64,000 bases of DNA, from the IMG/VR virus record IMGVR_UViG_3300014638_000001, one strand, 5' to 3'. The stretch comes from a virus. The translations under genes and the position numbers were made by a program. This document shows, one piece after another, positions 407 through 24,200 of this stretch. The first letter of the stretch is position 1; every line of letters starts with the position of its first letter. The notes beneath the pieces were generated by a model. That model did no database searches. It saw only the letters and a program-made list of their open reading frames with translations, and was not told where the DNA came from.

Positions 407-430
407 GAATACCCGGTTGGGGGAGTGCAG

Positions 431-465
431 ACGGCCGGGTCGAAAGGCCCGGCCGTTTTGTTTTT
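431..465 (+). terminator. Rho-independent terminator
   Basis: ACGGCCGGG(TC)-GAAA-(GG)CCCGGCCGT hairpin followed by TTTGTTTTT. Confidence 0.85.
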
Positions 466-541
466 GTCGTAGAGCGCGACCGGTCGAGCGCCCTGCCTCT
501 CAAGCAGGTGATAGTCGGTCCAATTCCGACCTACGACGCCA
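466..541 (+). tRNA. tRNA-Glu(CTC), non-canonical (A8, T-loop TCCAATT)
   Basis: Acceptor GTCGTAG/CTACGAC, anticodon arm CCTGC-CTCTCAA-GCAGG, encoded CCA. Confidence 0.85.
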
Positions 542-542
542 T

Positions 543-618
543 GGCGCAGAGCACGAACGGATGAGTGCCTTCTCTTTCAAAGAAGTGATAGTGGGGTCAG
601 CACCCACCTGCGCTACCA
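543..618 (+). tRNA. tRNA-Glu(TTC), non-canonical (A8, T-loop GTCAGCA)
   Basis: GGCGCAG/CTGCGCT, CTTCT-CTTTCAA-AGAAG, T-stem GTGGG/CCCAC, CCA. Confidence 0.8.
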
Positions 619-620
619 AT

Positions 621-697
621 GCCCCGGTCGTCCAACGGCAGGACGCCTGACTTTGACTCAGGAGATCATTTGGGTTCAATTCCCTGCCGGGGTGCCA
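621..697 (+). tRNA. tRNA-Gln(TTG)
   Basis: GCCCCGG/CCGGGGT, CCTGA-CTTTGAC-TCAGG, GGTTCAATTCC, CCA. Confidence 0.85.
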
Positions 698-703
698 AAA
701 ACT

Positions 704-1210
704 TTTCCCGATACGCAAGCGTTTTCGGGTATACTGGGCGTGTCAGTGAGAGACCCTGTCAGGACCGAGGCGCAATCGGAGAAACTGTGCTGGCGGGCGG
801 AGAAAATTAGAGCCGCTTAACAACCCGGAGAAAGACGGGCTTGCATCGTAAATCCGCCGATCGTGAATGCGGATGAGTTTCCGGAACCTCATAAAGTGCC
901 GGTGGGGTGTCGGCTGTCGCCCGGTTCGCCGGCTGTCCGTTATCAGCCGGCACGAATTTCTGGAAGGAGGGTCACGACCATGAAGACAGCGTAGGAGGCT
1001 AACTTCATGATCGTGTATCACTTCAAGGGCGCGCGGCGCCGCTTGCTGGATCGGGAACGCTTGGAACGAGGCGAACCCAAACAGAATCGCGAGCGTAACC
1101 GTTCGCTCAACTGCCGTTTCCCGAAAGAAGGGAAGGCATATCGCCTGAAAGGGCGGGCTCGGTTCAAGACTGGGAAGAAGAACCGGGATCGTAAGAAGAG
1201 CAGTTTGTAG
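704..1210 (+). ncRNA. candidate large (~500 nt) structured ncRNA, family unassigned
   Basis: Long-range complementarity 705-721 with 1040-1057, 752-757 with 968-973, 1109-1114 with 1200-1205; many local hairpins with purine-rich/GNRA loops; lies between tRNA genes. Strand inferred from the array. Confidence 0.6.
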
Positions 1211-1211
1211 G

Positions 1212-1229
1212 CACTCCTATATAGGAGTG
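1212..1229. repeat. 18-bp palindrome CACTCCTATATAGGAGTG, copy 1 (perfect)
   Basis: Intergenic, between the ncRNA candidate and tRNA-Trp. Confidence 0.95.
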
Positions 1230-1234
1230 TTTGT

Positions 1235-1308
1235 GCCCCGGTTGCCGATGGTGAGGCGGAACGGCTCCAACCCGTTTCTTCGGCGTTCGAATCGTCGCTG
1301 GGGTGCCA
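1235..1308 (+). tRNA. tRNA-Trp(CCA)
   Basis: GCCCCGG/CTGGGGT, AACGG-CTCCAAC-CCGTT, GTTCGAATC, CCA. Confidence 0.88.
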
Positions 1309-1309
1309 T

Positions 1310-1387
1310 GCGTCGGTAGCTAAATTGGATTAAAGCTCTTGACTCTTAATCAAGTGATTGCGGGTTCGACTCCCGCCCGACGCACCA
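1310..1387 (+). tRNA. tRNA-Lys(CTT)
   Basis: GCGTCGG/CCGACGC, CTTGA-CTCTTAA-TCAAG, GGTTCGACTCC, CCA. Confidence 0.92.
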
Positions 1388-1394
1388 AAGTTTT

Positions 1395-1471
1395 CAGCGA
1401 GTAGGCAAGCCTGGAGAGCCGCCTGGCCTGGGACTAGGAAATCGTTGGTTCAAATCCAACCTCGCTGACCA
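1395..1471 (+). tRNA. tRNA-Pro(TGG) with C33
   Basis: CAGCGAG/CTCGCTG, CCTGG-CCTGGGA-CTAGG, GGTTCAAATCC, CCA. Confidence 0.88.
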
Positions 1472-1485
1472 GAATTGGAGGCAGC

Positions 1486-2043
1486 ATGACGCGAAGATGG
1501 TTCTTTGGGATGGCCGGTGGTGTTGGTGGCTGGTTCGGCATTAAGCCGGCTATGGCAAAACCTACGCCGCCGGCGATCAAGCAGAGCCCACGGGTTACTT
1601 ATTCTACATTAATCGGCGCTCCTGGATACGTTTTCGTAAGCCTGTATTTTGACGTCGAATGGAATGCAGAAATGAAGATGACAGTTGGGCGCCCCGGTTC
1701 CCATCCATTAACCACGAGTTGGATCACAGGTCCATATCCAGGGAACCCCAGTCGGCGTCGTTGGCTTGGATTCACGTCGATATCTGGGCTCGTAGCTCAC
1801 CCACCGTTACTGCTGACGCTGACGAGTGATCGGCCCTTTGTGGTCCACCAGGTGGTGCCGTCGTACCGGCTGCCAGCGGCTGACAGAATCTCGGAACTTC
1901 GCGAGGCGCGTCATGTTTTGGATGGTCTTACGGACAAGTCGCCGCGGCAACGCGCACTTGAGATTGAATCTGCATCGGCTCGCGAACAGATCCATGAAGC
2001 TCGCGTGCAGCGGTACAACGATGCCATGAAGGGTTTTGATTAA
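1486..2043 (+). CDS. hypothetical protein with twin-arginine (Tat)-like N-terminus, 185 aa
   Basis: GGAGG SD; N-terminus MTRRWFFGMAGGVGG...AMA. Confidence 0.65.
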   Translation: MTRRWFFGMAGGVGGWFGIKPAMAKPTPPAIKQSPRVTYSTLIGAPGYVFVSLYFDVEWNAEMKMTVGRPGSHPLTTSWITGPYPGNPSRRRWLGFTSISGLVAHPPLLLTLTSDRPFVVHQVVPSYRLPAADRISELREARHVLDGLTDKSPRQRALEIESASAREQIHEARVQRYNDAMKGFD

Positions 2044-2081
2044 GCCCGGCTCGTTTAGCGGCCAGGACCGGCGGTTTGTAA
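2044..2081 (+). pseudogene. 5' half of a tRNA (anticodon loop TTTGTAA, Thr-like), no 3' half
   Basis: GCCCGGC-TC-GTTTAGCGGCCAGGAC-C-GGCGG-TTTGTAA, then unrelated sequence ahead of the HNH gene. Confidence 0.5.
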
Positions 2082-2113
2082 CATAGATCAAGCCGTGTTA
2101 TAATTGACATGGT

Positions 2114-2578
2114 TTGGGGACTAAAACATGCAGTAAATGCAAGAGAGAATTGGAGAAGGAGGTATTCGCCCCGAGGGATGGTAATCCAAACAAGCTAGCG
2201 TCATGGTGCCGAGAATGCACTCGTTCTTGGGCGAATCTTCAATATTCAACAAATTCAAAACGTAGGCAGGCAATCGCTGATAATAGAAAGCTGTGTAAGT
2301 TACGGAATTACGCGCTCTTGTCCACGTTGAAGGATTTCCCGTGCATCGATTGCAAGAACCGTTTCCCGGCCTGCTGTATGGATTTTGACCACATCAGAGG
2401 CAAAAAGTTGCATAATGTGGCTTGGTTGGTCAATGTTTCAGAGCGTAGACTTCTTGAAGAGATCGCGAAGTGTGACCTAGTCTGTGCCAATTGTCATAGA
2501 ATCAGGACGGCCAGGCGAGGCGGATGGTTTAAAATGAATGCCGAGATAGCACAAGTTGGCGGTGCGCCGGTTCTGTAA
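2114..2578 (+). CDS. HNH endonuclease (free-standing, in tRNA array)
   Basis: CSKC..CREC zinc knuckle; CIDC..DFDH..CDLVCANCHRIRT HNH motif; TTG start. Confidence 0.85.
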   Translation: MGTKTCSKCKRELEKEVFAPRDGNPNKLASWCRECTRSWANLQYSTNSKRRQAIADNRKLCKLRNYALLSTLKDFPCIDCKNRFPACCMDFDHIRGKKLHNVAWLVNVSERRLLEEIAKCDLVCANCHRIRTARRGGWFKMNAEIAQVGGAPVL

Positions 2579-2616
2579 ACCGGAGGTTGCGAGATCGTGG
2601 CTCGCTCTCGGCTCCA
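2540..2616 (+). tRNA. tRNA-Thr(TGT), C33, aberrant T-loop ATCGTGG
   Basis: GCCGAGA/TCTCGGC, CCGGT-TCTGTAA-ACCGG, T-stem GCGAG/CTCGC, CCA. Confidence 0.75.
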
Positions 2617-2617
2617 T

Positions 2618-2691
2618 GCCTCGGTAGCTCAGTGGCAGAGCAGTGGTTTCGTAAACCACCGACGAGAGTTCAATTCTCTCCCTTGGCTCCA
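2618..2691 (+). tRNA. tRNA-Thr(CGT)
   Basis: AGCTCAGTGGCAGAGC D-arm, GTGGT-TTCGTAA-ACCAC, GAGTTCAATTCTC, CCA; two acceptor-stem mismatches. Confidence 0.82.
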
Positions 2692-2699
2692 GAGTTTAC

Positions 2700-2774
2700 G
2701 CGGTGGTGGCCGAGAGGCAAGGTACCTCACTGTCTATGAGGACAACGCGGGTTCGAATCCCGTCCATCGCGCCA
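2700..2774 (+). tRNA. tRNA-Asp(GTC)
   Basis: GCGGTGG/CCATCGC, CCTCA-CTGTCTA-TGAGG, GGTTCGAATCC, CCA. Confidence 0.9.
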
Positions 2775-2775
2775 A

Positions 2776-2849
2776 GCGGGTGTGGCTCATTGGTTGAGTT
2801 CCAGCCTTCCAAGCTGGCCAAGAGAGTTCGATTCTCTCCACTCGCTCCA
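2776..2849 (+). tRNA. tRNA-Gly(TCC)
   Basis: GCGGGTG/CACTCGC, CCAGC-CTTCCAA-GCTGG, U73, CCA. Confidence 0.92.
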
Positions 2850-2854
2850 AAGTT

Positions 2855-3115
2855 ATGAAGACGATCGAGGTGCTGATTCCTGGTAAGTGCTCGATGATCC
2901 GCGGCGCTCTCGCCACGTGTGCGATCGAGGGGAACCAGTTCGCGATCGATGCGATCGAGACCATCCGGCGTGTGGATATCGGCGAGCCGGTTGGGGCGCG
3001 GTACGCGAAGCAGTTGAATGAGTTTTTGAGCGGGCGTAATTCAGCGGCAGAATGTCTGACTGCCAGTCAGAACGTCGCGGGTTCGAGTCCCGCCGCCCGC
3101 ACCAAGCCCTTGTAG
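2855..3115 (+). CDS. possible small hypothetical protein whose 3' end overlaps tRNA-Gly(GCC)
   Basis: Fills the 180-nt gap between tRNAs with phage-like codons; weak SD. Confidence 0.35.
   Translation: MKTIEVLIPGKCSMIRGALATCAIEGNQFAIDAIETIRRVDIGEPVGARYAKQLNEFLSGRNSAAECLTASQNVAGSSPAARTKPL
3030..3104 (+). tRNA. tRNA-Gly(GCC), A73 discriminator
   Basis: GCGGGCG/CGCCCGC, TCTGA-CTGCCAG-TCAGA, GGTTCGAGTCC, ACCA. Confidence 0.92.
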
Positions 3116-3179
3116 CTCGACGGTCGAGCATTCGGCCTTTAACCGAATGGACTGGGTCCGATTCCCAGCGAGGGCACCA
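3106..3179 (+). tRNA. tRNA-Lys(TTT), C33, T-loop TCCGATT
   Basis: GCCCTTG/CGAGGGC, TTCGG-CCTTTAA-CCGAA, CCA. Confidence 0.85.
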
Positions 3180-3186
3180 AAGATTG

Positions 3187-3445
3187 GATGTAGTTGGTCA
3201 TAGGGCAAGGCTCCTTCAGGGCGGCTGGCCGCCAAGCAAGCGCTATGGCCGTAAAACCCCAAGGGAGACCGAAAGCCCGAAAGGGCATGGAGAATGCCGG
3301 TGAGGACGAAAGAAAACCATGCAGGGTTTGTCCAAGAGGCCGAGCTAGATCCCCCGGAACGGCATGGCGGGCCGGGAACGACACAGGACGGTGAAGCACG
3401 TCCGTCCGAAAGATGACCGCGGGGTTACGAGGTAGCTTCTACATG
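3187..3445 (+). ncRNA. candidate ~260-nt structured ncRNA, family unassigned
   Basis: Ends pair (ATGTAG 3188-3193 / CTACAT 3439-3444); helices GGTCATAG/CTATGGCC, GCCC-GAAA-GGGC, GGCAT/ATGCC, GGAC/GTCC, CCCGG/CCGGG, GGACG/CGTCC. Confidence 0.5.
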
Positions 3446-3447
3446 AT

Positions 3448-3524
3448 GCCGGGCAACCACGCTGGTCGCGTGGACTGGTCCTACAAACCAGCACAGTGGA
3501 GTTCGATTCTCCGGCCCGGTACCA
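3448..3524 (+). tRNA. tRNA-Val(TAC), A8 and C33
   Basis: GCCGGGC/GCCCGGT, CTGGT-CCTACAA-ACCAG, GGAGTTCGATTCTCC, CCA. Confidence 0.82.
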
Positions 3525-3525
3525 C

Positions 3526-3600
3526 CCTCGAGAGGCTCTCCGGACGAGCAGTCGGCCGATAACCGACAGGGAGATGGTTCGATTCCATCCTCGAGGACCA
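3526..3600 (+). tRNA. tRNA-Ile(GAT), A8 and C33
   Basis: CCTCGAG/CTCGAGG, GTCGG-CCGATAA-CCGAC, GATGGTTCGATTCCATC, CCA. Confidence 0.85.
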
Positions 3601-3646
3601 AGTTCTATGACTAAAAGACTGGCAACAGATCAAGATTATATGATCC

Positions 3647-3725
3647 GCTGGCGTAGCTCAAGACCGGCCAGAGCACATGGCTTATAACCGTGAGGTTCTT
3701 GGTTCAAATCCAAGCGCCAGCACCA
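3647..3725 (+). tRNA. tRNA-Ile(TAT)
   Basis: GCTGGCG/CGCCAGC, CATGG-CTTATAA-CCGTG, GGTTCAAATCC, CCA. Confidence 0.88.
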
Positions 3726-3759
3726 GGTTCCGATGTTAGAATACTGAGGAGGAATTTTC

Positions 3760-4140
3760 ATGACGCAGATAGAAGCCGACAATTACAACATCACGCTGCC
3801 CATCACGACAGCCGCGGAAGCGAATGCCTGTTTCATGCAACCCGCACAATTGCAAGACGTTGACGCGAGTGGCAAGACCACGATTTACTTACGGCCGTAC
3901 GAATGTGCGACCAAATCCGGCGCACAGATGCTCGCGACCGCTGTTGGTGGGTCAATCAACGGCCAATTGATCCCCAGCCTGAAGGTCTCGCCGACGATCT
4001 ACACGGTCATCTGGCCAGACAATAGCAGCTCGCTTGCCGGTTGGTATATCTACAACTGGCTGATTCTGCATGGCTGGAACTGGAGTGGCGGAATTGATGT
4101 TGGATCGCCGCTGGCCTGGACCGCGCCGGCAGCGAAGTAA
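3760..4140 (+). CDS. hypothetical protein, 126 aa
   Basis: GAGGAGG SD, ATG, fills gap between tRNAs. Confidence 0.7.
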   Translation: MTQIEADNYNITLPITTAAEANACFMQPAQLQDVDASGKTTIYLRPYECATKSGAQMLATAVGGSINGQLIPSLKVSPTIYTVIWPDNSSSLAGWYIYNWLILHGWNWSGGIDVGSPLAWTAPAAK

Positions 4141-4145
4141 GCTAT

Positions 4146-4219
4146 TCCGGGATAGCTCAGTGGCAGAGCTCAGTTTTGGTAAAGCTGCGACTCGGGTTCG
4201 ATTCCCGGTCCTGGATCCA
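4146..4219 (+). tRNA. tRNA-Thr(GGT)
   Basis: TCCGGGA/TCCTGGA, CAGTT-TTGGTAA-AGCTG, GGTTCGATTCC, CCA. Confidence 0.85.
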
Positions 4220-4225
4220 GATTAT

Positions 4226-4380
4226 GCCGCCGTAGCTCAGTGGTGGATGTGCGGCTTCGAAGCGTTGTCCGGACCGCGCTTCGGGGTGCATCACATCTCC
4301 CATGTGGGGTGACCTGCATGGCTTTGAGAGCACCGACTGTGGAAGCCGGAGCATGGATGGTTCGAATCCTCCCGGCGGCT
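4226..4380 (+). tRNA. His(GTG)-like tRNA with 82-nt structured insertion in the D-loop (4245-4326); irregular anticodon stem, no encoded CCA
   Basis: GCCGCCG/CGGCGGC acceptor; removing 4245-4326 restores GCTCAGTGGTAGAGC; CTGTGGA loop; GGTTCGAATCC. Confidence 0.6.
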
Positions 4381-4390
4381 TTACCCACAT

Positions 4391-4466
4391 TCCGGGGTAG
4401 CCGACGTGGTCAAGGCACTGGCCTGAAACGCCAGCAATAGTCGTTCGATTCGACTCCCCGGAACCA
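4391..4466 (+). tRNA. tRNA-Phe(GAA)
   Basis: TCCGGGG/CCCCGGA, CTGGC-CTGAAAC-GCCAG, GTTCGATTC, CCA. Confidence 0.88.
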
Positions 4467-7272: not shown

Positions 7273-7709
7273 TGCCGGGGACAAAGCGCAAACGGGTGAG
7301 GAAGAGTCTCATCGAGAAACTCCCGGAGAGAATCCGAGAATCCGCGGTGATGCGTCGGCAGTCCATCCGCCCGAGCAGTATGACGAAGTACCAGCAGCAG
7401 ATGCTGTTGCTGTTCATGCCGGAAATCTCCCGGTGGTTTTTCGCTCGGCTCATGGACGGTGTCAAACGCGGGAACAAGACAGATCAGGCATTGTGGGCTG
7501 AAATGGCTGGGCATATCCAGCGCAAGAACGGCATCAACATCAACCAGCAGATCCTGAGCCAGCAGAACGTGAACGCGACGGCGCCGCGGTATTCGATGGA
7601 CCAGATTGTTCGAGAGCTCCAGGAACAAACCGAAATGAAGACGATCGACACGACGCTCGCAATCGAGCCAGGAGGCAGCGATGTTAACAACGTCGCGGTG
7701 GAAGCGTGA
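7272..7709 (+). CDS. putative terminase small subunit (positional), 145 aa
   Basis: ATG coupled to upstream TGA; basic N-terminus; overlaps the TerL start. Confidence 0.45.
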   Translation: MPGTKRKRVRKSLIEKLPERIRESAVMRRQSIRPSSMTKYQQQMLLLFMPEISRWFFARLMDGVKRGNKTDQALWAEMAGHIQRKNGININQQILSQQNVNATAPRYSMDQIVRELQEQTEMKTIDTTLAIEPGGSDVNNVAVEA

Positions 7710-10700
7710 CGTCGGCGTCGATGAACTCGTCGAGCATTTCGATCAGGAGAAGTACCTCGCCGACTGCAGTGTTCTAACGGTCGTGGAGATCCGTCAGCTC
7801 GCTGCCGAGATCAAGCGGTGTCAGGAAAGCTTCGAATACGCCGCGAGAAATTATTTTAAGATCATCAACAAGCAGCGGGAAGATCAGTATCTGACCTTGA
7901 ACGAGGGCCAGGACGTACTGCTGGAGAAAATCTACCGGCTGCGGGATCGCGGTAAACCACAGAAACTACAGATCATCAAAGCACGCCAGCTCGGAGCCAT
8001 GCATCCCACGACCAACGTGTTGACGGCAGAGCTCAATTGGGTACGAATCGATTCTCTCCGGCCAGGCCAGAAAATCATTGGCGTCGACGAGTTCCCGGCT
8101 GGCGGCCGTGGTGTTGGTAGAAAATTCCGTACTGCTGTTGTTCTCAAAAAGTGGACTGTCCAGAAGGAGGCATTTCGGATCACGATGGGAAACGGTGCCA
8201 TCTTGACGGCCACGGGAGATCACCCCTTCTTATGCAAGAAACGCGGCAATGTCCAGACCGAATGGCGATTGACCGCCGAGCATCCAAAAGGCAAGAAATC
8301 CTCATCGCCAATTCGGGTTGGTGATGAGATTAGGTGCGTAATTCCGCCATGGTATCGCGAGCAGGCTTTTGAGTTTGATGACGGATGGTTTGCTGGATTG
8401 ATGGACGGCGAAGGATCCTTGCGGGCGAAGAAAAACGGCGGCATTGAGGCGACGGTATCCCAGGTAGCTGGGCCGGTTCTTAACCGCGCGGCTCGCTACC
8501 TAGACTCGCACGGGTACCCATTCGCTGTTGATGTCGACAAACGAAAGAAGGCGGATAGTACGAAACTTGGCGATCAGCCGGTATACAAGCTTGTGCTGAA
8601 CAGTATCCCGCAGGTATTAAGACTTCTTGGGAACACCAGGCCAACGCGATTTGAGGGAAGGGATATATGGGAGGGAAAAGACTTACCTAACAACGGCGTA
8701 GGCCAATCATGGCAAAAAGTAGTCTCCATTGAATCGATTGGCGAGCAGGAGATGGTGGACATTGAAACCAGCACGGGAACGTTCATCGCGGAAGGCTTTA
8801 TCACCCACAACTGTTCGACATTGATCGAGGCGCTGATCGCCTGGCGCACGATGTTTTTCCCGAATGTAGCCGCGATGGTGGTCTCGCACGTCGGCACGCA
8901 CGCCAGCTTCCTGTTCCAGAAGATGGTCCACATCTACGACCAATTGCCATGGTGGATGAAGCCGATGCTCGCCTCGCGTAAGGAAGAGGAGGGGCTTGTT
9001 TTTAAGAATCCTGAGCCGGAATTACGTCGCGTGGATCCAGGGTTAAATTCCAGTGTGATTGTCCAGGCAGCCACACAGGTCTCGGGCGTTGGTGAGGGCT
9101 ACACCATCAATGCGATGCACTTCTCCGAGTACTGCAGCGTCGACGATTCCAAGGCGCGCGAAATCATTGAGGGTGACATGGTGCACGCGCTGGCGCCCAA
9201 TGTGGGTACTTTCGCGATCTTGGAATCCACAGCGAAGGGTGCTGGCCGGTTTTCTGAGGATTTATGGGTTGCGAATGTGGATCTAGCTGAAAAGGCTGAC
9301 TGGTATACAGTCTTCTTGCCATGGTTTTTTGAAAAACAGCGCGTAGTGGCTCCGGAAGATGGCTGGCGCCCAAGCGAGCCCGAACTCGCGATGCGTTTGC
9401 GTGTCGAGAAAGAGTGGGTGCAGTGCACTCATTGTGGCGAGTTCCGCGAACGTTACTTCAAAACGTTTGACATCAAAGGCAGTGAATGCACGGACTGCCA
9501 CAAGGGTACTCGAGAACCGTATCTCCTCAGCGATCCGCAGCTCGCCTGGATGCAGGAGCGCGTGCTCAATGCGCGCCGGCGCGGTCCGGAATCACTGAAA
9601 GAATTGCGCCAGGAATTGTGCACGACGGCCGAAGAGGCGTTTCAAATTTCTGGCATCGCTGTCTTCCCCGAGGATACGCAGGAGTTTGTGAACGAGACGA
9701 TTTGCCCGGCGGTTTGGACCGGAAACCTCGATCGCAAAGGCAAGTTTCACTGCTCGATTCGGGAAGTCGATGAGAACGGCAAAGAACACTTCAAGTGTTT
9801 CCAGGAATGGTGCACGGTGGATCATCGCTGGGATCTGGAAAGTCCCCTACAGATCTGGGAACTTCCGGAACCAGGCGCGCGGTACTGCATTGGTGTGGAT
9901 ATCGCCGAAGGGTTGGCAACCGAGAAATCGGACTACTCAGTATGCTGGGTAAATAAGATCGGTGATGCGCCGTCGCCAGACACACACGTTGCGACTTATC
10001 GATCGAATTCAATCAATCCGTCTGACCTAGCCGCCGTCTGCAACTTCCTTGGCCGTTGGTACAACGAAGCACAACTCTCGATTGAGTACAACGTCTATCA
10101 GACGACCGGCGACAACGTCAAGAATTTCTATCAGTACCCAAATCTATTCCGGTGGAAGCACTACGACTCCGTGACCGGGATGAACTCGAACAAGCTGCAC
10201 TGGCTCACACAACAGAATTCGAAACCGCAGCTATGGCAGACCGGCGTTCGCGCGCTTCGCGAGCGTTCGTGGTTCATCCACGACAAGATGTTCGCGCACG
10301 AGATGAAACGATTCCAGAAAGAGGAATACGACTCAAAGAAAGCGGAAGCCGAGACGAACTTTCATGACGATGTCATCATGGCTGCGCTGATCGCGCGCTA
10401 CACCAGTCACGATCTTGATTCCTACGACGAGAACGCCTATGCGGCCGCGGATGCTGGGCCGGCATTTGTCCAGATGCTCGAGTGGACGATGGATTGCCTG
10501 ACCTGCAAATTCACATGGCAAGCTAACAATCCAGAAGAGTACAGGCGTTGCCCATCACCGAAATGCAATTCGCCGATGTTGCATGGCAAGCCGAACACCA
10601 AAGAGGGACCCACTAAGCTGGGGGGAAAGTACGTTTTCCAGCAGATCGAAGAAGAAGTCAATGAGCTCGATACCCTGCCGGAAGACGGCACGTTAGAAAG

Positions 10701-10722
10701 GAATTTGGCACCAATCCTATGA
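7681..10722 (+). CDS. terL: terminase large subunit with intein
   Basis: IIKARQLG|CST Walker A; MHFSEY Walker B; ESTAKG; YCIGVDIAEG nuclease; HDDVIMA. Confidence 0.93.
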   Translation: MLTTSRWKRDVGVDELVEHFDQEKYLADCSVLTVVEIRQLAAEIKRCQESFEYAARNYFKIINKQREDQYLTLNEGQDVLLEKIYRLRDRGKPQKLQIIKARQLGAMHPTTNVLTAELNWVRIDSLRPGQKIIGVDEFPAGGRGVGRKFRTAVVLKKWTVQKEAFRITMGNGAILTATGDHPFLCKKRGNVQTEWRLTAEHPKGKKSSSPIRVGDEIRCVIPPWYREQAFEFDDGWFAGLMDGEGSLRAKKNGGIEATVSQVAGPVLNRAARYLDSHGYPFAVDVDKRKKADSTKLGDQPVYKLVLNSIPQVLRLLGNTRPTRFEGRDIWEGKDLPNNGVGQSWQKVVSIESIGEQEMVDIETSTGTFIAEGFITHNCSTLIEALIAWRTMFFPNVAAMVVSHVGTHASFLFQKMVHIYDQLPWWMKPMLASRKEEEGLVFKNPEPELRRVDPGLNSSVIVQAATQVSGVGEGYTINAMHFSEYCSVDDSKAREIIEGDMVHALAPNVGTFAILESTAKGAGRFSEDLWVANVDLAEKADWYTVFLPWFFEKQRVVAPEDGWRPSEPELAMRLRVEKEWVQCTHCGEFRERYFKTFDIKGSECTDCHKGTREPYLLSDPQLAWMQERVLNARRRGPESLKELRQELCTTAEEAFQISGIAVFPEDTQEFVNETICPAVWTGNLDRKGKFHCSIREVDENGKEHFKCFQEWCTVDHRWDLESPLQIWELPEPGARYCIGVDIAEGLATEKSDYSVCWVNKIGDAPSPDTHVATYRSNSINPSDLAAVCNFLGRWYNEAQLSIEYNVYQTTGDNVKNFYQYPNLFRWKHYDSVTGMNSNKLHWLTQQNSKPQLWQTGVRALRERSWFIHDKMFAHEMKRFQKEEYDSKKAEAETNFHDDVIMAALIARYTSHDLDSYDENAYAAADAGPAFVQMLEWTMDCLTCKFTWQANNPEEYRRCPSPKCNSPMLHGKPNTKEGPTKLGGKYVFQQIEEEVNELDTLPEDGTLERNLAPIL
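7996..8811 (+). mobile_element. intein, 272 aa, Ala1 (class 2-like), LAGLIDADG endonuclease motif
   Basis: G|AMHPTT...TATGDHPF (block B)...WFAGLMDGEG...MVDIET (block F Asp)...ITHN|C. Confidence 0.9.
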
Positions 10723-11042
10723 CCACAGAAGAAGTAGTTTACGACGAAGTCGGCCGTGTGAAAGGCGAATGGTATTTTGATCCAATCGACCTGCCGGCGC
10801 TCAATGAACGCGCCGCAATATGTGGGCGCGATCGCCAGCACCTCATCCAGGACTTCTGTAGCGAAGTCTGGGAGAAAGGGTGGATCTGGGAATTCACGCC
10901 AAAGGACGAAGTCAGCATCCGGTTGACTCTCGAGCAACGTCGAAAGTTGGAAGAGATCCTGGACGTCAAGGCGTTGACCGGCGACGATCTGTACAACTTC
11001 ATCACGGGTCTCGCCGAATCGCCAATTAAGTTTGGGAGTTAA
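10719..11042 (+). CDS. hypothetical protein, 107 aa
   Basis: ATGA overlap with terL. Confidence 0.75.
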   Translation: MTTEEVVYDEVGRVKGEWYFDPIDLPALNERAAICGRDRQHLIQDFCSEVWEKGWIWEFTPKDEVSIRLTLEQRRKLEEILDVKALTGDDLYNFITGLAESPIKFGS

Positions 11043-21215: not shown

Positions 21216-24200
21216 ATGAGCTTGCCTCCTATCACAACCGTACACGCGACAGCGTTCGAGCAGTGGGATTATGACACGCCGAACACGACCGGCATAGGAG
21301 GTTCCGAGACAAGCCAAATCGAGTTGAGTTGGAGGCTCGCACGCCGTGGATACGACGTGATGACCTACGCCCCGGTGCCCTGGGAAGGCGTACGTGAATG
21401 GCGCGGATCGAAGTGGGCGCCGCTCACAGCGGTCGATTGGAAGCGGCCCGGCATCTGGCTGATTTACCGCCAGCCGTCAGCGCTCGACAACTTCCCAGAC
21501 AACCATCCCGACCAGCGGCTCTACCTGGTCAGTCAGGATGTCACCTATCCCGACTGGACGAAGGAGCGCATGACGAAACTCGATCGCTTCATGGCGCTTT
21601 GCCAGACCCATGCGCAAGACCACCGCACGCGCTGGCCGGGCTTCGATGAGAAGATCTTTGTTTCCGCCAACGGTATCAAGCGCGACCTCATCGAACAGAT
21701 TGAAAAAGAAGGGATAAAACGCAATCCTCGGAAAATGATTTATGCGTCGTCGCCGGACCGCGGCTTGGTCTGCTTACTCAAAGTCTTCAAGCGGGCGCAG
21801 GAATGGGTGAAGAATCTCGAGCTCCACGTCTTCTACGGTTTCGACAACATCGACAAGCTCATCGCCTCGAACCAAAACAACAAAGATTACGCAAAATTGA
21901 AGGCCGAAGTCACAAAACTCTGCCAGATGCCGGGCGTGATCTGGCGCGGCCGCATCAACCAGCCGGACCTGATCCGGGAATGGTTCAGCGCCGGCATCTG
22001 GTGCCACCCTTCGGTCTTCACCGAAACCGGCTGCATCACCTCGATGGAGGCGCAGGCGTGTGGCGCTATCCCGATCACGACGCCGATCTGGGCGGTGGCC
22101 GAGAACGTCAAGCACGGCATGTTTATCCAGGGGAACCCGTACATCGATCCGATCGTCCAGGCGCGCTTTGTGAGCGCCATCTACCGGCTGGTCGCCGATG
22201 AGAAACTCCAAGCGGACATTCGGGCCGAGATGATCCCCGAAGCACGCTTCCGCTTTGATTGGGAAAAGGTGGTCGACGGTCTAGAACGCGAATTCCACTC
22301 CCATATAGGAGTGATTTCGCCGAAGCCGATCGTCAAGAACGCTCCGAACCGGTTCATTTTGTACTCGCCGATTTCGCTCAGTCAATGGGATTGGAACAAC
22401 ACGGAGAGCGGCATCGGCGGCTGTGAGACCTCGGTTGCGGAAATGGCTTGGCGGCTGCAGCGCGCTGGCAGCGAAGTGATCGTCTACGCCCCCGTCCCGT
22501 TTGACGGCGAGCGGGAGTGGCGCGGAACTAAGTGGCGCCCGGTGGACAAGGCCGATTTCTCGATCCCTGGCACCTGGTGCATCTACCGCGTCCCGCAGAT
22601 GCTGCATAAGTTCGACCGGAACCGTGATGACCAGGTGATCTGGCTCATGATGCAGGATTGGGATTACGACTGGAAGGGTTTTGATCGCATGGATCGGGTG
22701 GTGACGTTATGCCACACGCACGAGAAATGGCTGCTGGAGCGGCATCCGGAGCTCAAACCGAAACTCCACGTCACCTCGAACGGTATCAAGGTGGACTTGA
22801 TCGAGGAGATCGAGAGAACCAACGAACTCCCACCACGCAATCCGCGGAAAATGATTTATGCGTCGTCGCCGGACCGCGGGCTGAAGCGGCTACTTGAGAT
22901 CTTTGCTAAGGCCCAAGCTCAACAGGACCCGGCGCAACCGCTCGAACTTCACGTGTTTTACGGATTCGATGGTCTCGAACAGCTTGTCGCCCGGAATCCG
23001 GATTCGGCGCCGCTGCTCAAAGACCGGGAAGAAATCCAGAAGCTGGCGGGGACGATCCCTGGCGTGCATCTACGTGGTCGTGTTTCACAGACCGAACTCT
23101 ATCGCGAATGGTTTTCAGCCGGCATCTGGTGCTATCCGACCGATTTCGCTGAGATGAGTTGCATCACCTGCCAGGAAGCGCAGGCGATGGGGGCGATCCC
23201 GGTGACCTGCGAAGCATGGGCACAGGGTGAGAACACGTTATTCGGCATCACTATCACCGGAGACCCGGCGATTCCGGGGGTTCAGGACGAATTTGTCAAG
23301 CAGCTTGTGTCAATCGCGAACGATATCCCGCGGCAAGAACGCATCCGGGCGGAAATGATGCCAGCCATCCGCCAGCGCTTCGACTGGAATCGCCACGTGT
23401 CGCAGTGGGAAGACTGGACAGAAGAAGACCGTGTCGTGCATGAAACCCAGATCTGCCGTGGCTGCGGCGAAGACAAGCTCGAGACTGTACTCGATTTGGG
23501 CGAACAGGCGATCGCCGGCTACTTCCCGGAGCCCGGCGAGAAAGTGCTTCTGGCGCCACTCGAGCTGGTGCGCTGCACCGCCTGCGATCTCGGCCAATTG
23601 CGGCATTCGGTGGATCGCCGGGCGCTATTCGCCGGCGCCTACGGCTACCGCTCTGGAATCAACGAAACCATGCGCGGGCACCTGAAGGGAATCGCCAAGG
23701 AATTCAAGGTGAAGAGCGGCGATCTGGTGGTGGACATCGGCTGCAACGATGGAACGTTTCTGGAGAACTTCCCGGTGCGCTCGCGCGTTGGTTATGATCC
23801 ATCGGAGATCTGCCCATCCAAATACCATCGGGACTTCTTCAGCCAGGAGCACTTCGAGAAACATCACCCCGGCAAGAAGGCGAAGGTGGTGACTTCGCTG
23901 GCGATGTTTTACGACCTCGAGGATCCGCTCGAATTCGCCAAGCAGGTGCACGGCATCCTAGCCGATGACGGGATCTGGGTGATCGAGGTTCAGGATTTCG
24001 CCGAGACTGCCAAGAAATCGGCCTTCGACACAATCTGCCATGAGCATCTGACCTATTGGGACGCCACTAGGCTGGAAGAAGTCCTCGTGCGCTCTGGCTT
24101 CGTTTCCGTCAAAGTCGACTACAACTCTATTAATGGTGGCAGTATGCGGGTACACGCGATGAAGGTTGTCGTCCGTGAATCAGGACCAAAACCGTATCCA

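Follow-up and report, generated by a model that had tools for sequence, protein, structure and literature searches.

A 64,000-nucleotide stretch of viral DNA (IMG/VR record IMGVR_UViG_3300014638_000001), called the window below when the whole stretch is meant, carries between positions 466 and 4466 an array of tRNA genes made of two classes. Ten of the 17 tRNAs are canonical, and seven (Glu-CTC, Glu-TTC, Pro-TGG, Thr-TGT, Lys-TTT, Val-TAC and Ile-GAT) depart from the norm at positions that include U33, U8, T54 and the pseudouridine at position 55 (Psi55), which rank with the most strongly conserved residues in biology. Judged from their sequences, the seven deviants appear to be functional tRNAs whose core has been remodelled, not pseudogenes. 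We consider it slightly short of an even bet (about 45%) that they are working tRNAs that make poor substrates for host enzymes and so keep a decoding pool available under attack. If that is true, working tRNAs without those residues would reveal how far host enzymes, rather than the ribosome, dictate the tRNA core, and the idea of counter-defense by phage tRNAs, which has experimental support, would extend from anticodon-stem changes to the U-turn residue. That phage tRNAs are nuclease-insensitive variants is already a published general hypothesis (van den Berg et al. 2023, eLife; PMC10264068). New here are the two-class structure, the co-variation of positions 8, 14 and 21 and of positions 54 and 58, and the 6-bp D-stems; a search of the open-access literature returned no paper on C33 enrichment in phage tRNAs or on the two-class co-variation pattern.

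tRNA genes were called with ARAGORN and with Rfam model RF00005 (gathering threshold of 29 bits, permissive filters), and their minimum free energy (MFE) folds were computed. ARAGORN returned 16 tRNAs, all on the + strand between 466 and 4466. A 17th, Glu(TTC), was called by neither ARAGORN nor Rfam and was read by hand; it starts 1 nt after Glu(CTC), ends 2 nt before Gln, and has the anticodon loop CT|TTC|AA, discriminator A and CCA. An 18th, tRNA-like gene at 4226-4380 was left out of the counts. The 17 genes are as follows.

466..541, + strand: tRNA-Glu(CTC), deviant, with A8, A14, G21, G13.A22 and T-loop TCCAATT (C55), U33 kept (ARAGORN; Rfam, 42.7 bits)
543..618, + strand: tRNA-Glu(TTC), deviant, with A8, A14, G21, G1.U72 and T-loop GTCAGCA (G54/G58) (read by hand; MFE fold a cloverleaf)
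621..697, + strand: tRNA-Gln(TTG), canonical at 8, 14, 21, 33 and 54-58 (ARAGORN; Rfam, 50.9 bits)
1235..1308, + strand: tRNA-Trp(CCA), canonical at invariant positions (ARAGORN; no Rfam score)
1310..1387, + strand: tRNA-Lys(CTT), canonical, U33 kept, unlike Lys(TTT) (ARAGORN; Rfam, 70.1 bits)
1395..1471, + strand: tRNA-Pro(TGG), deviant, with C33 and G21, bacterial-type C1-G72 and A73 kept (ARAGORN; Rfam, 50.3 bits)
2540..2616, + strand: tRNA-Thr(TGT), deviant, with C33, G21 and T-loop ATCGTGG (A54/U58 swap), 21/21 Watson-Crick pairs (ARAGORN; Rfam, 46.8 bits)
2618..2691, + strand: tRNA-Thr(CGT), canonical invariants, two acceptor-stem mismatches (ARAGORN)
2700..2774, + strand: tRNA-Asp(GTC), canonical (ARAGORN; Rfam)
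2776..2849, + strand: tRNA-Gly(TCC), canonical except for U21 (ARAGORN; Rfam)
3030..3104, + strand: tRNA-Gly(GCC), canonical (ARAGORN; Rfam, 67 bits)
3106..3179, + strand: tRNA-Lys(TTT), deviant, with C33, G14-C21 (6-bp D-stem) and T-loop TCCGATT (C55) (ARAGORN; Rfam, 55.5 bits)
3448..3524, + strand: tRNA-Val(TAC), deviant, with C33, A8 and G14-C21 (6-bp D-stem) (ARAGORN; best Rfam model tRNA-Sec, 35.4 bits)
3526..3600, + strand: tRNA-Ile(GAT), deviant, with C33, an A8/U14 swap and C21, 21/21 Watson-Crick pairs (ARAGORN; Rfam, 46.2 bits)
3647..3725, + strand: tRNA-Ile(TAT), canonical (ARAGORN; Rfam, 62.7 bits)
4146..4219, + strand: tRNA-Thr(GGT), canonical (ARAGORN; Rfam)
4391..4466, + strand: tRNA-Phe(GAA), canonical (ARAGORN; Rfam, 58.2 bits)

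All 17 form a cloverleaf with a 7-bp acceptor stem, a D-stem of 3-4 bp (6 bp in Val and Lys(TTT)), 5-bp anticodon and T stems and a 7-nt anticodon loop, according to the ARAGORN structures and MFE folds. Fourteen pass the RF00005 threshold, the deviants among them at 42.7 to 55.5 bits, and Pro, Lys(TTT), Thr(TGT) and Ile(GAT) align with the model over its full length. Glu(TTC) and Trp had no match, and the only Rfam listing for Val(TAC) was the selenocysteine tRNA (tRNA-Sec) model, below that model's cut-off of 47 bits.

We read each gene at U33, at U8-A14(-A21), at T54-Psi55-C56 and at A58. C33 was present in 5 of the 17 tRNAs and A8 in 4; a residue other than A occupied position 21 in 8, and positions 54, 55 or 58 were altered in 4. 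The anticodon loops with C33 are CC|TGG|GA in Pro(TGG), TC|TGT|AA in Thr(TGT), CC|TTT|AA in Lys(TTT), CC|TAC|AA in Val(TAC) and CC|GAT|AA in Ile(GAT), the very five for which the original prediction had claimed this change. It had also claimed A8 in both Glu tRNAs, Val and Ile(GAT), and T-loops lacking TTC in Glu(CTC) (TCCAATT), Glu(TTC) (GTCAGCA), Thr(TGT) (ATCGTGG) and Lys(TTT) (TCCGATT), and every one of these was read as described. Position 33 is altered in 29% of the genes, and the residues at positions 32, 37 and 38 are those of the normal Y/R/A-C range. A21 is absent from all seven deviants but from only 1 of the 10 others. The two Glu tRNAs have A8, A14, G21 and G13.A22 in common, and in Val(TAC) and Lys(TTT) a G14-C21 pair extends the D-stem to 6 bp, which accounts for the match of Val with the tRNA-Sec model. 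The D-arm of bacterial tRNA-Sec likewise has a 6-bp D-stem, with a small loop and no 8-14 tertiary pair. The likeness is limited to this arm, as the acceptor and T stems of the two phage tRNAs measure 7 and 5 bp rather than 8 and 5, and they have no long variable arm and carry ordinary sense anticodons.

To place these frequencies, we analyzed with the same tool 108 tRNAs of four unrelated tRNA-rich phages (Myrna, Tunturi_5, RsoM2USA and CM1) and the 35 tRNAs of an Acidobacteria metagenome-assembled genome (MAG), a stand-in for the host. C33 occurred in 3 of the 108 phage tRNAs (Fisher P = 0.001 against 5 of 17) and in none of the 35 bacterial ones (P = 0.002). Taken singly, the other two marks were weakly raised, A8 being found in 4 of 17 against 8 of 108 (P = 0.06) and non-TTC T-loops in 4 of 17 against 10 of 108 (P = 0.10). 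The bacterial tRNAs were canonical at positions 8, 33, 54-56 and 58 in all 35 cases, and none was more than 71% identical to a tRNA of the window. The four phages, which infect Mycobacterium (Myrna), Ralstonia (RsoM2USA), Tunturiibacter (Tunturi_5) and Stenotrophomonas (CM1), thus show the same types of deviation at low frequency, including C33 in Val(GAC) of Myrna and in Val(GAC) and Pro(CGG) of RsoM2USA, and ATCGTTA T-loops in RsoM2USA. In the window, C33 is about ten-fold more frequent than in these phages, and the deviations gather in one coherent subclass of tRNAs.

The deviations are clustered. The 13 marks (C33, A8 or T-loop) are confined to seven tRNAs (P about 0.01), six of which carry at least two (P about 0.001). 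They are also compensated. Across the window and the relatives described below, A8 was associated with G21 (11 of 14 against 7 of 67; P = 7e-7) and with U14 (5 of 14 against 2 of 67; P = 0.001). Positions 54 and 58 read U-A in 76 cases, A-U in 3 and G-G in 2, with zero single changes. Some of the tRNAs in these counts are paralogues, such as the three Thr genes of one relative (L046), so that they do not represent independent events.

What is kept is equally orderly. G18, G19, G53, C56 and C61 are present in 17 of 17 tRNAs, so that 0 of 85 G/C-invariant sites have changed, and discriminators are appropriate to the isotype throughout (17/17), including A73 with C1-G72 in Pro and G73 in Glu-CTC, Gln, Trp and Asp. 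The original prediction that stems remain paired and CCA is retained was borne out, with 19 to 21 Watson-Crick pairs out of 21, and G-U pairs besides, in the deviants and CCA encoded in 17 of 17. Thr(TGT) and Ile(GAT), the two most deviant, have 21 of 21 Watson-Crick pairs, and Lys(TTT) has 20 and one G-U. Its view that these genes do not look decayed is likewise supported by intact stems, CCA, discriminators and G/C invariants together with the compensated changes (A8/U14, A8/G21, A54/U58 and G54/G58). Such an orderly, compensated pattern makes decay unlikely. The deviants lie 1 to 2 nt from canonical neighbors within the array, and we rejected the possibility that they are recent paralogues that inherited their changes from a common ancestor, as mean identity was 0.61 among the deviants and 0.60 among the canonical genes. 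They decode common codons: of 14,147 codons, 654 are Glu (GAA/GAG), 523 are ATC and 229 are AAA. Codon usage does not separate the competing hypotheses.

Relatives were sought mainly through the large terminase gene of the window. An INPHARED search returned no close relative of the window, and scans of IMG/VR with the single terminase sequence or with an exact pattern for the Lys(TTT) anticodon arm gave no match. A scan of genome contigs yielded only a 24%-identical match, in an Acidobacteria MAG. An alignment-based terminase scan of IMG/VR, in contrast to that with the single sequence, retrieved 80 loci at 31 to 52% identity, on contigs of 95 to 106 kb, some with direct terminal repeats. Most of these relatives have no tRNA or one, and arrays lie beside the terminase gene in L046 (30 tRNAs), L061 (27 tRNAs) and L026/L027 (7 tRNAs). 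As a few relatives have 27 to 30 tRNAs and most, including complete genomes of 95 to 106 kb, have 0 or 1, the large array is a variable acquisition within the phage family.

The array-bearing relatives show the same types of change in partly different isoacceptors, and most of their tRNA calls were confirmed by Rfam. C33 occurs in Pro(TGG), Ala, Asp and Glu(CTC) of L046, in Val(TAC) of L061 and in Ser(CGA) of L026, A8 in 10 of 64 tRNAs of relatives, and T-loops ATCGTTA, TCCGATT and GTCGGTG are found as well. We had considered that C33 in Pro-TGG and Val-TAC might be demonstrably inherited and dropped this idea, as the best identities to L046, L061 and L026 tRNAs were about 0.7 and often to a different isotype. 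We make no claim that a given C33 has been conserved through time, because the tRNAs of the relatives are too diverged for orthology. Among 189 pooled phage tRNAs, C33 was found in 4 of 9 Val tRNAs against 10 of 180 others (P = 0.002, uncorrected) and in 3 of 12 Pro tRNAs. The Val tRNAs with C33 come from four unrelated phages: the window (3448-3524), L061 (3478-3553), L085 (Myrna; 21914-21986) and L087 (RsoM2USA; 10755-10829).

We propose that the seven core-remodelled tRNAs would be transcribed and processed alongside the others and would still be charged and work as elongators, while the class has lost the U and A residues recognized or modified by host enzymes (U33, U8, A14/A21, U54, U55 and A58). 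A8, C55 and A54 or G54 abolish the substrates for formation of 4-thiouridine at position 8 (s4U8), Psi55 and 5-methyluridine at position 54 (m5U54). Such tRNAs would be hypomodified by the corresponding enzymes, and would make poor substrates for anticodon nucleases that act next to U33 and for the machinery that forms N6-threonylcarbamoyladenosine at position 37 (t6A37). The phage might in this way retain a decoding-competent, nuclease-resistant pool during an attack on host tRNAs or under limiting modification.

Several known systems make this reading plausible. PrrC and RloC cleave tRNA-Lys(UUU) 3' of U33 (PMC2610378), and Cas13b6 is reported to remove U33 of tRNA-Val(GAC) (2026 preprint, PMC13692257). 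The Escherichia coli TsaBCDE enzymes are unable to form t6A on a U33C tRNA (PMC8887486), from which A37 is predicted to stay unmodified in Thr(TGT), Lys(TTT) and Ile(GAT). C33 of initiator tRNA-Met in multicellular eukaryotes, a natural and functional C33 tRNA, is an anti-determinant for the bacterial and yeast t6A37 enzymes (PMC8887486). The window differs from that single initiator in having five phage elongator tRNAs with C33, three of them decoders of ANN codons that normally need t6A37. By experiment, tRNA-Lys(UUU), Thr(UGU) and Asn(GUU) of phage T5 neutralize the PARIS nuclease AriB (PMC11464382, PMC12409363), and T5 tRNA-Tyr acts against PtuAB of retron Eco7 (PMC11555353). Like the T5 set, the tRNAs of the window are phage encoded, belong to a large array and differ from typical cellular tRNAs within the anticodon loop or close to it, and two with C33, Lys(UUU) and Thr(UGU), have the anticodons of two AriB targets. 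In T5, however, a base pair of the anticodon stem is swapped and the AriB cut falls at positions 40/41, whereas the window combines a changed U-turn residue 33 with a remodelled 8-14-21 triple and T-loop.

A number of points weigh against our proposal. The tRNAs of the relatives are about 70% identical to those of the window, no better than unrelated tRNAs, and are often closest to another isotype, and the A8/G21 association draws in part on paralogues. The changes extend over all of the tertiary core, a spread that relaxed constraint would likewise produce. All of them fall at A/U invariants and most are AT-to-GC, so that in a phage of 56% GC mutation bias could contribute. Loss of t6A37 is expected to impair decoding of ANN codons and, in E. 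coli-like hosts, recognition by isoleucyl-tRNA synthetase. Gamma-toxin cuts a U33C tRNA in the same way as the wild type (PMC2275089), and the proven escape of T5 from PARIS AriB is a base-pair swap in the anticodon stem, not a change at position 33 (PMC11464382), indicating that C33 is no general shield. Evasion of host tRNA-targeting defense or of dependence on modification, which the original prediction had put forward, is thus plausible and fits the literature only partly. A stronger version of the proposal seems to us unlikely: the deviants would form a lineage-maintained architectural class (C33; A8.N14.G21 or G14-C21; A54-U58 or G54-G58; C55) that, stripped of each U which host enzymes thiolate, methylate, isomerize or cut next to, serves as a semi-orthogonal, modification-independent and nuclease-proof decoding set, in which C33, recurrent in phage tRNA-Val and tRNA-Pro, would defeat U33-acting HEPN-type nucleases (PrrC, RloC, Cas13).

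The alternative that survives best is relaxed constraint combined with mutation bias, which is quite possible. If the tRNAs are needed briefly and at high dose, slightly deleterious changes of the core and of the U-turn might be fixed by drift and then compensated, C33 being the best-tolerated substitute for U33; the tRNAs would still work, and nothing would be evaded. This would agree with deviations at many core positions beyond the anticodon loop (8, 14, 21, 33, 54, 55 and 58), with the different isoacceptors affected in different relatives and with the few percent of the same changes in unrelated phages; weaker selection on some of the genes would also be expected to yield multi-hit tRNAs. 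Rfam scores are also lower in the phage tRNAs (35 to 70 bits) than in the bacterium (mostly 55 to 77 bits), and the AT-to-GC direction of most changes matches the composition of the window (56% GC; 0.67 at third codon positions). Drift sits less well with the unchanged 85 G/C-invariant sites and the perfect stems of the most deviant tRNAs, with a position 33 altered in 29% of the genes next to positions 32, 37 and 38 in their normal range, with changes at 54 and 58 that are always double, and with deviants that serve abundant codons.

It is very unlikely that the array retains some or all of the seven deviants as tRNA pseudogenes or as tRNA-like RNAs that do not decode. Glu(TTC) did escape both ARAGORN and Rfam, Val(TAC) reaches just 35.4 bits against the tRNA-Sec model, and a clearly aberrant tRNA-like gene occurs in the same array at 4226-4380. 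Yet the stems of the deviants are perfect or nearly so, CCA is encoded, discriminators are appropriate, the MFE folds are cloverleaves and the tertiary changes are compensated, the only tRNA with stem mismatches being the canonical Thr(CGT). Self-immunity, in which a nuclease of the phage itself, directed at U33 or at the core, would deplete host tRNAs and uncuttable variants would replace them, is more improbable still: degradation of host tRNAs has been proposed to drive viral tRNA acquisition (Yang et al. 2021, as cited in PMC11464382) and the window covers 64 kb out of a genome that spans at least 103 kb, but searches of its 58 open reading frames (ORFs) with Pfam and PADLOC found no HEPN, PIN, colicin-type, Toprim or other tRNase family, and ten of the phage's own tRNAs keep U33.

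The window is a partial genome of an uncultured tailed phage, as seen from genes in these 64 kb for an intein-bearing terminase, a portal, tape-measure-like proteins and podophage-type adaptors. Two features other than tRNA genes are referred to below.

429..458, + strand: intrinsic-terminator-like hairpin and T run (stem of 13 pairs, 9 of them G-C; T-rich tail) that closes the ORF upstream and immediately precedes the first tRNA of the stretch
7681..10722, + strand: large terminase with intein/HNH insert, 1013 amino acids

The terminase is longer than its closest homologues, which have about 740 residues and align with only some 62% of its length. Intein domains (PF14890, PF14528) occur in many longer homologues, and an HNH segment was matched by PHROGs at residues 235-281, which together point to an intein or homing-endonuclease insert. 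More than 100 terminase homologues were found in metagenomes, the closest (P0001-P0005; ENA, Logan or NCBI) at 76 to 91% identity. Homologues of an array ORF (P0116 and P0117, from the same sources) were about 54% identical, and a protein of the array region is also encoded on a 103-kb contig. The best explanation is that the stretch is the downstream part of one or more tRNA operons of a tailed phage of about 100 kb. The same Pfam and PADLOC searches found no tRNA ligase or modification enzyme either in the 58 ORFs, the only domains seen being HNH, Endonuclease VII, methyltransferase and glycosyltransferase, and the ORFs embedded in the array had no Pfam match. In the window, therefore, both a repair strategy and a phage-encoded killer of host tRNAs are unsupported, with at least 39 kb of the genome lying outside it.

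The sole match in a metagenome scan was JGI contig Ga0316221_1013950 (L119), 99.94% identical to positions 1-1643 of the window. The one difference in 1643 aligned bases is a G to T in the D-stem of tRNA-Trp (window 1235-1308; L119 3925-3998), where it disrupts a pair in the L119 strain.

Four further observations concern the array. Thr(CGT) (2618-2691), although canonical at the invariant positions, has adjacent U.U and C.U mismatches in its acceptor stem and is the sole tRNA of the array with broken stem pairs. The 268-nt gap between Lys(TTT) and Val(TAC) (3180-3447, + strand) contains neither a tRNA nor a match to Rfam; its two ends pair and several loops are of the GAAA type, with a folding energy only weakly better than that of shuffled sequences (z = -1.8). 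The uncounted tRNA-like gene is best described by its coordinates and architecture.

4226..4380, + strand: tRNA-like gene with an 83-nt structured D-loop insert, loop UGUGGAA and no CCA (Rfam, 35.4 bits; fold z = -2.6)

Its acceptor stem is a perfect 7 bp and its D-stem 4 bp, and the D-loop insert folds on itself. The anticodon stem is mismatched, the T-loop is TTCGAAT, and the CCA found in all 17 neighbors is missing. Finally, Ile(TAT) (3647-3725) has an anticodon that is rare in bacteria, and ATA makes up just 31 of 742 Ile codons in the large ORFs of the window; L046 also has such a tRNA.

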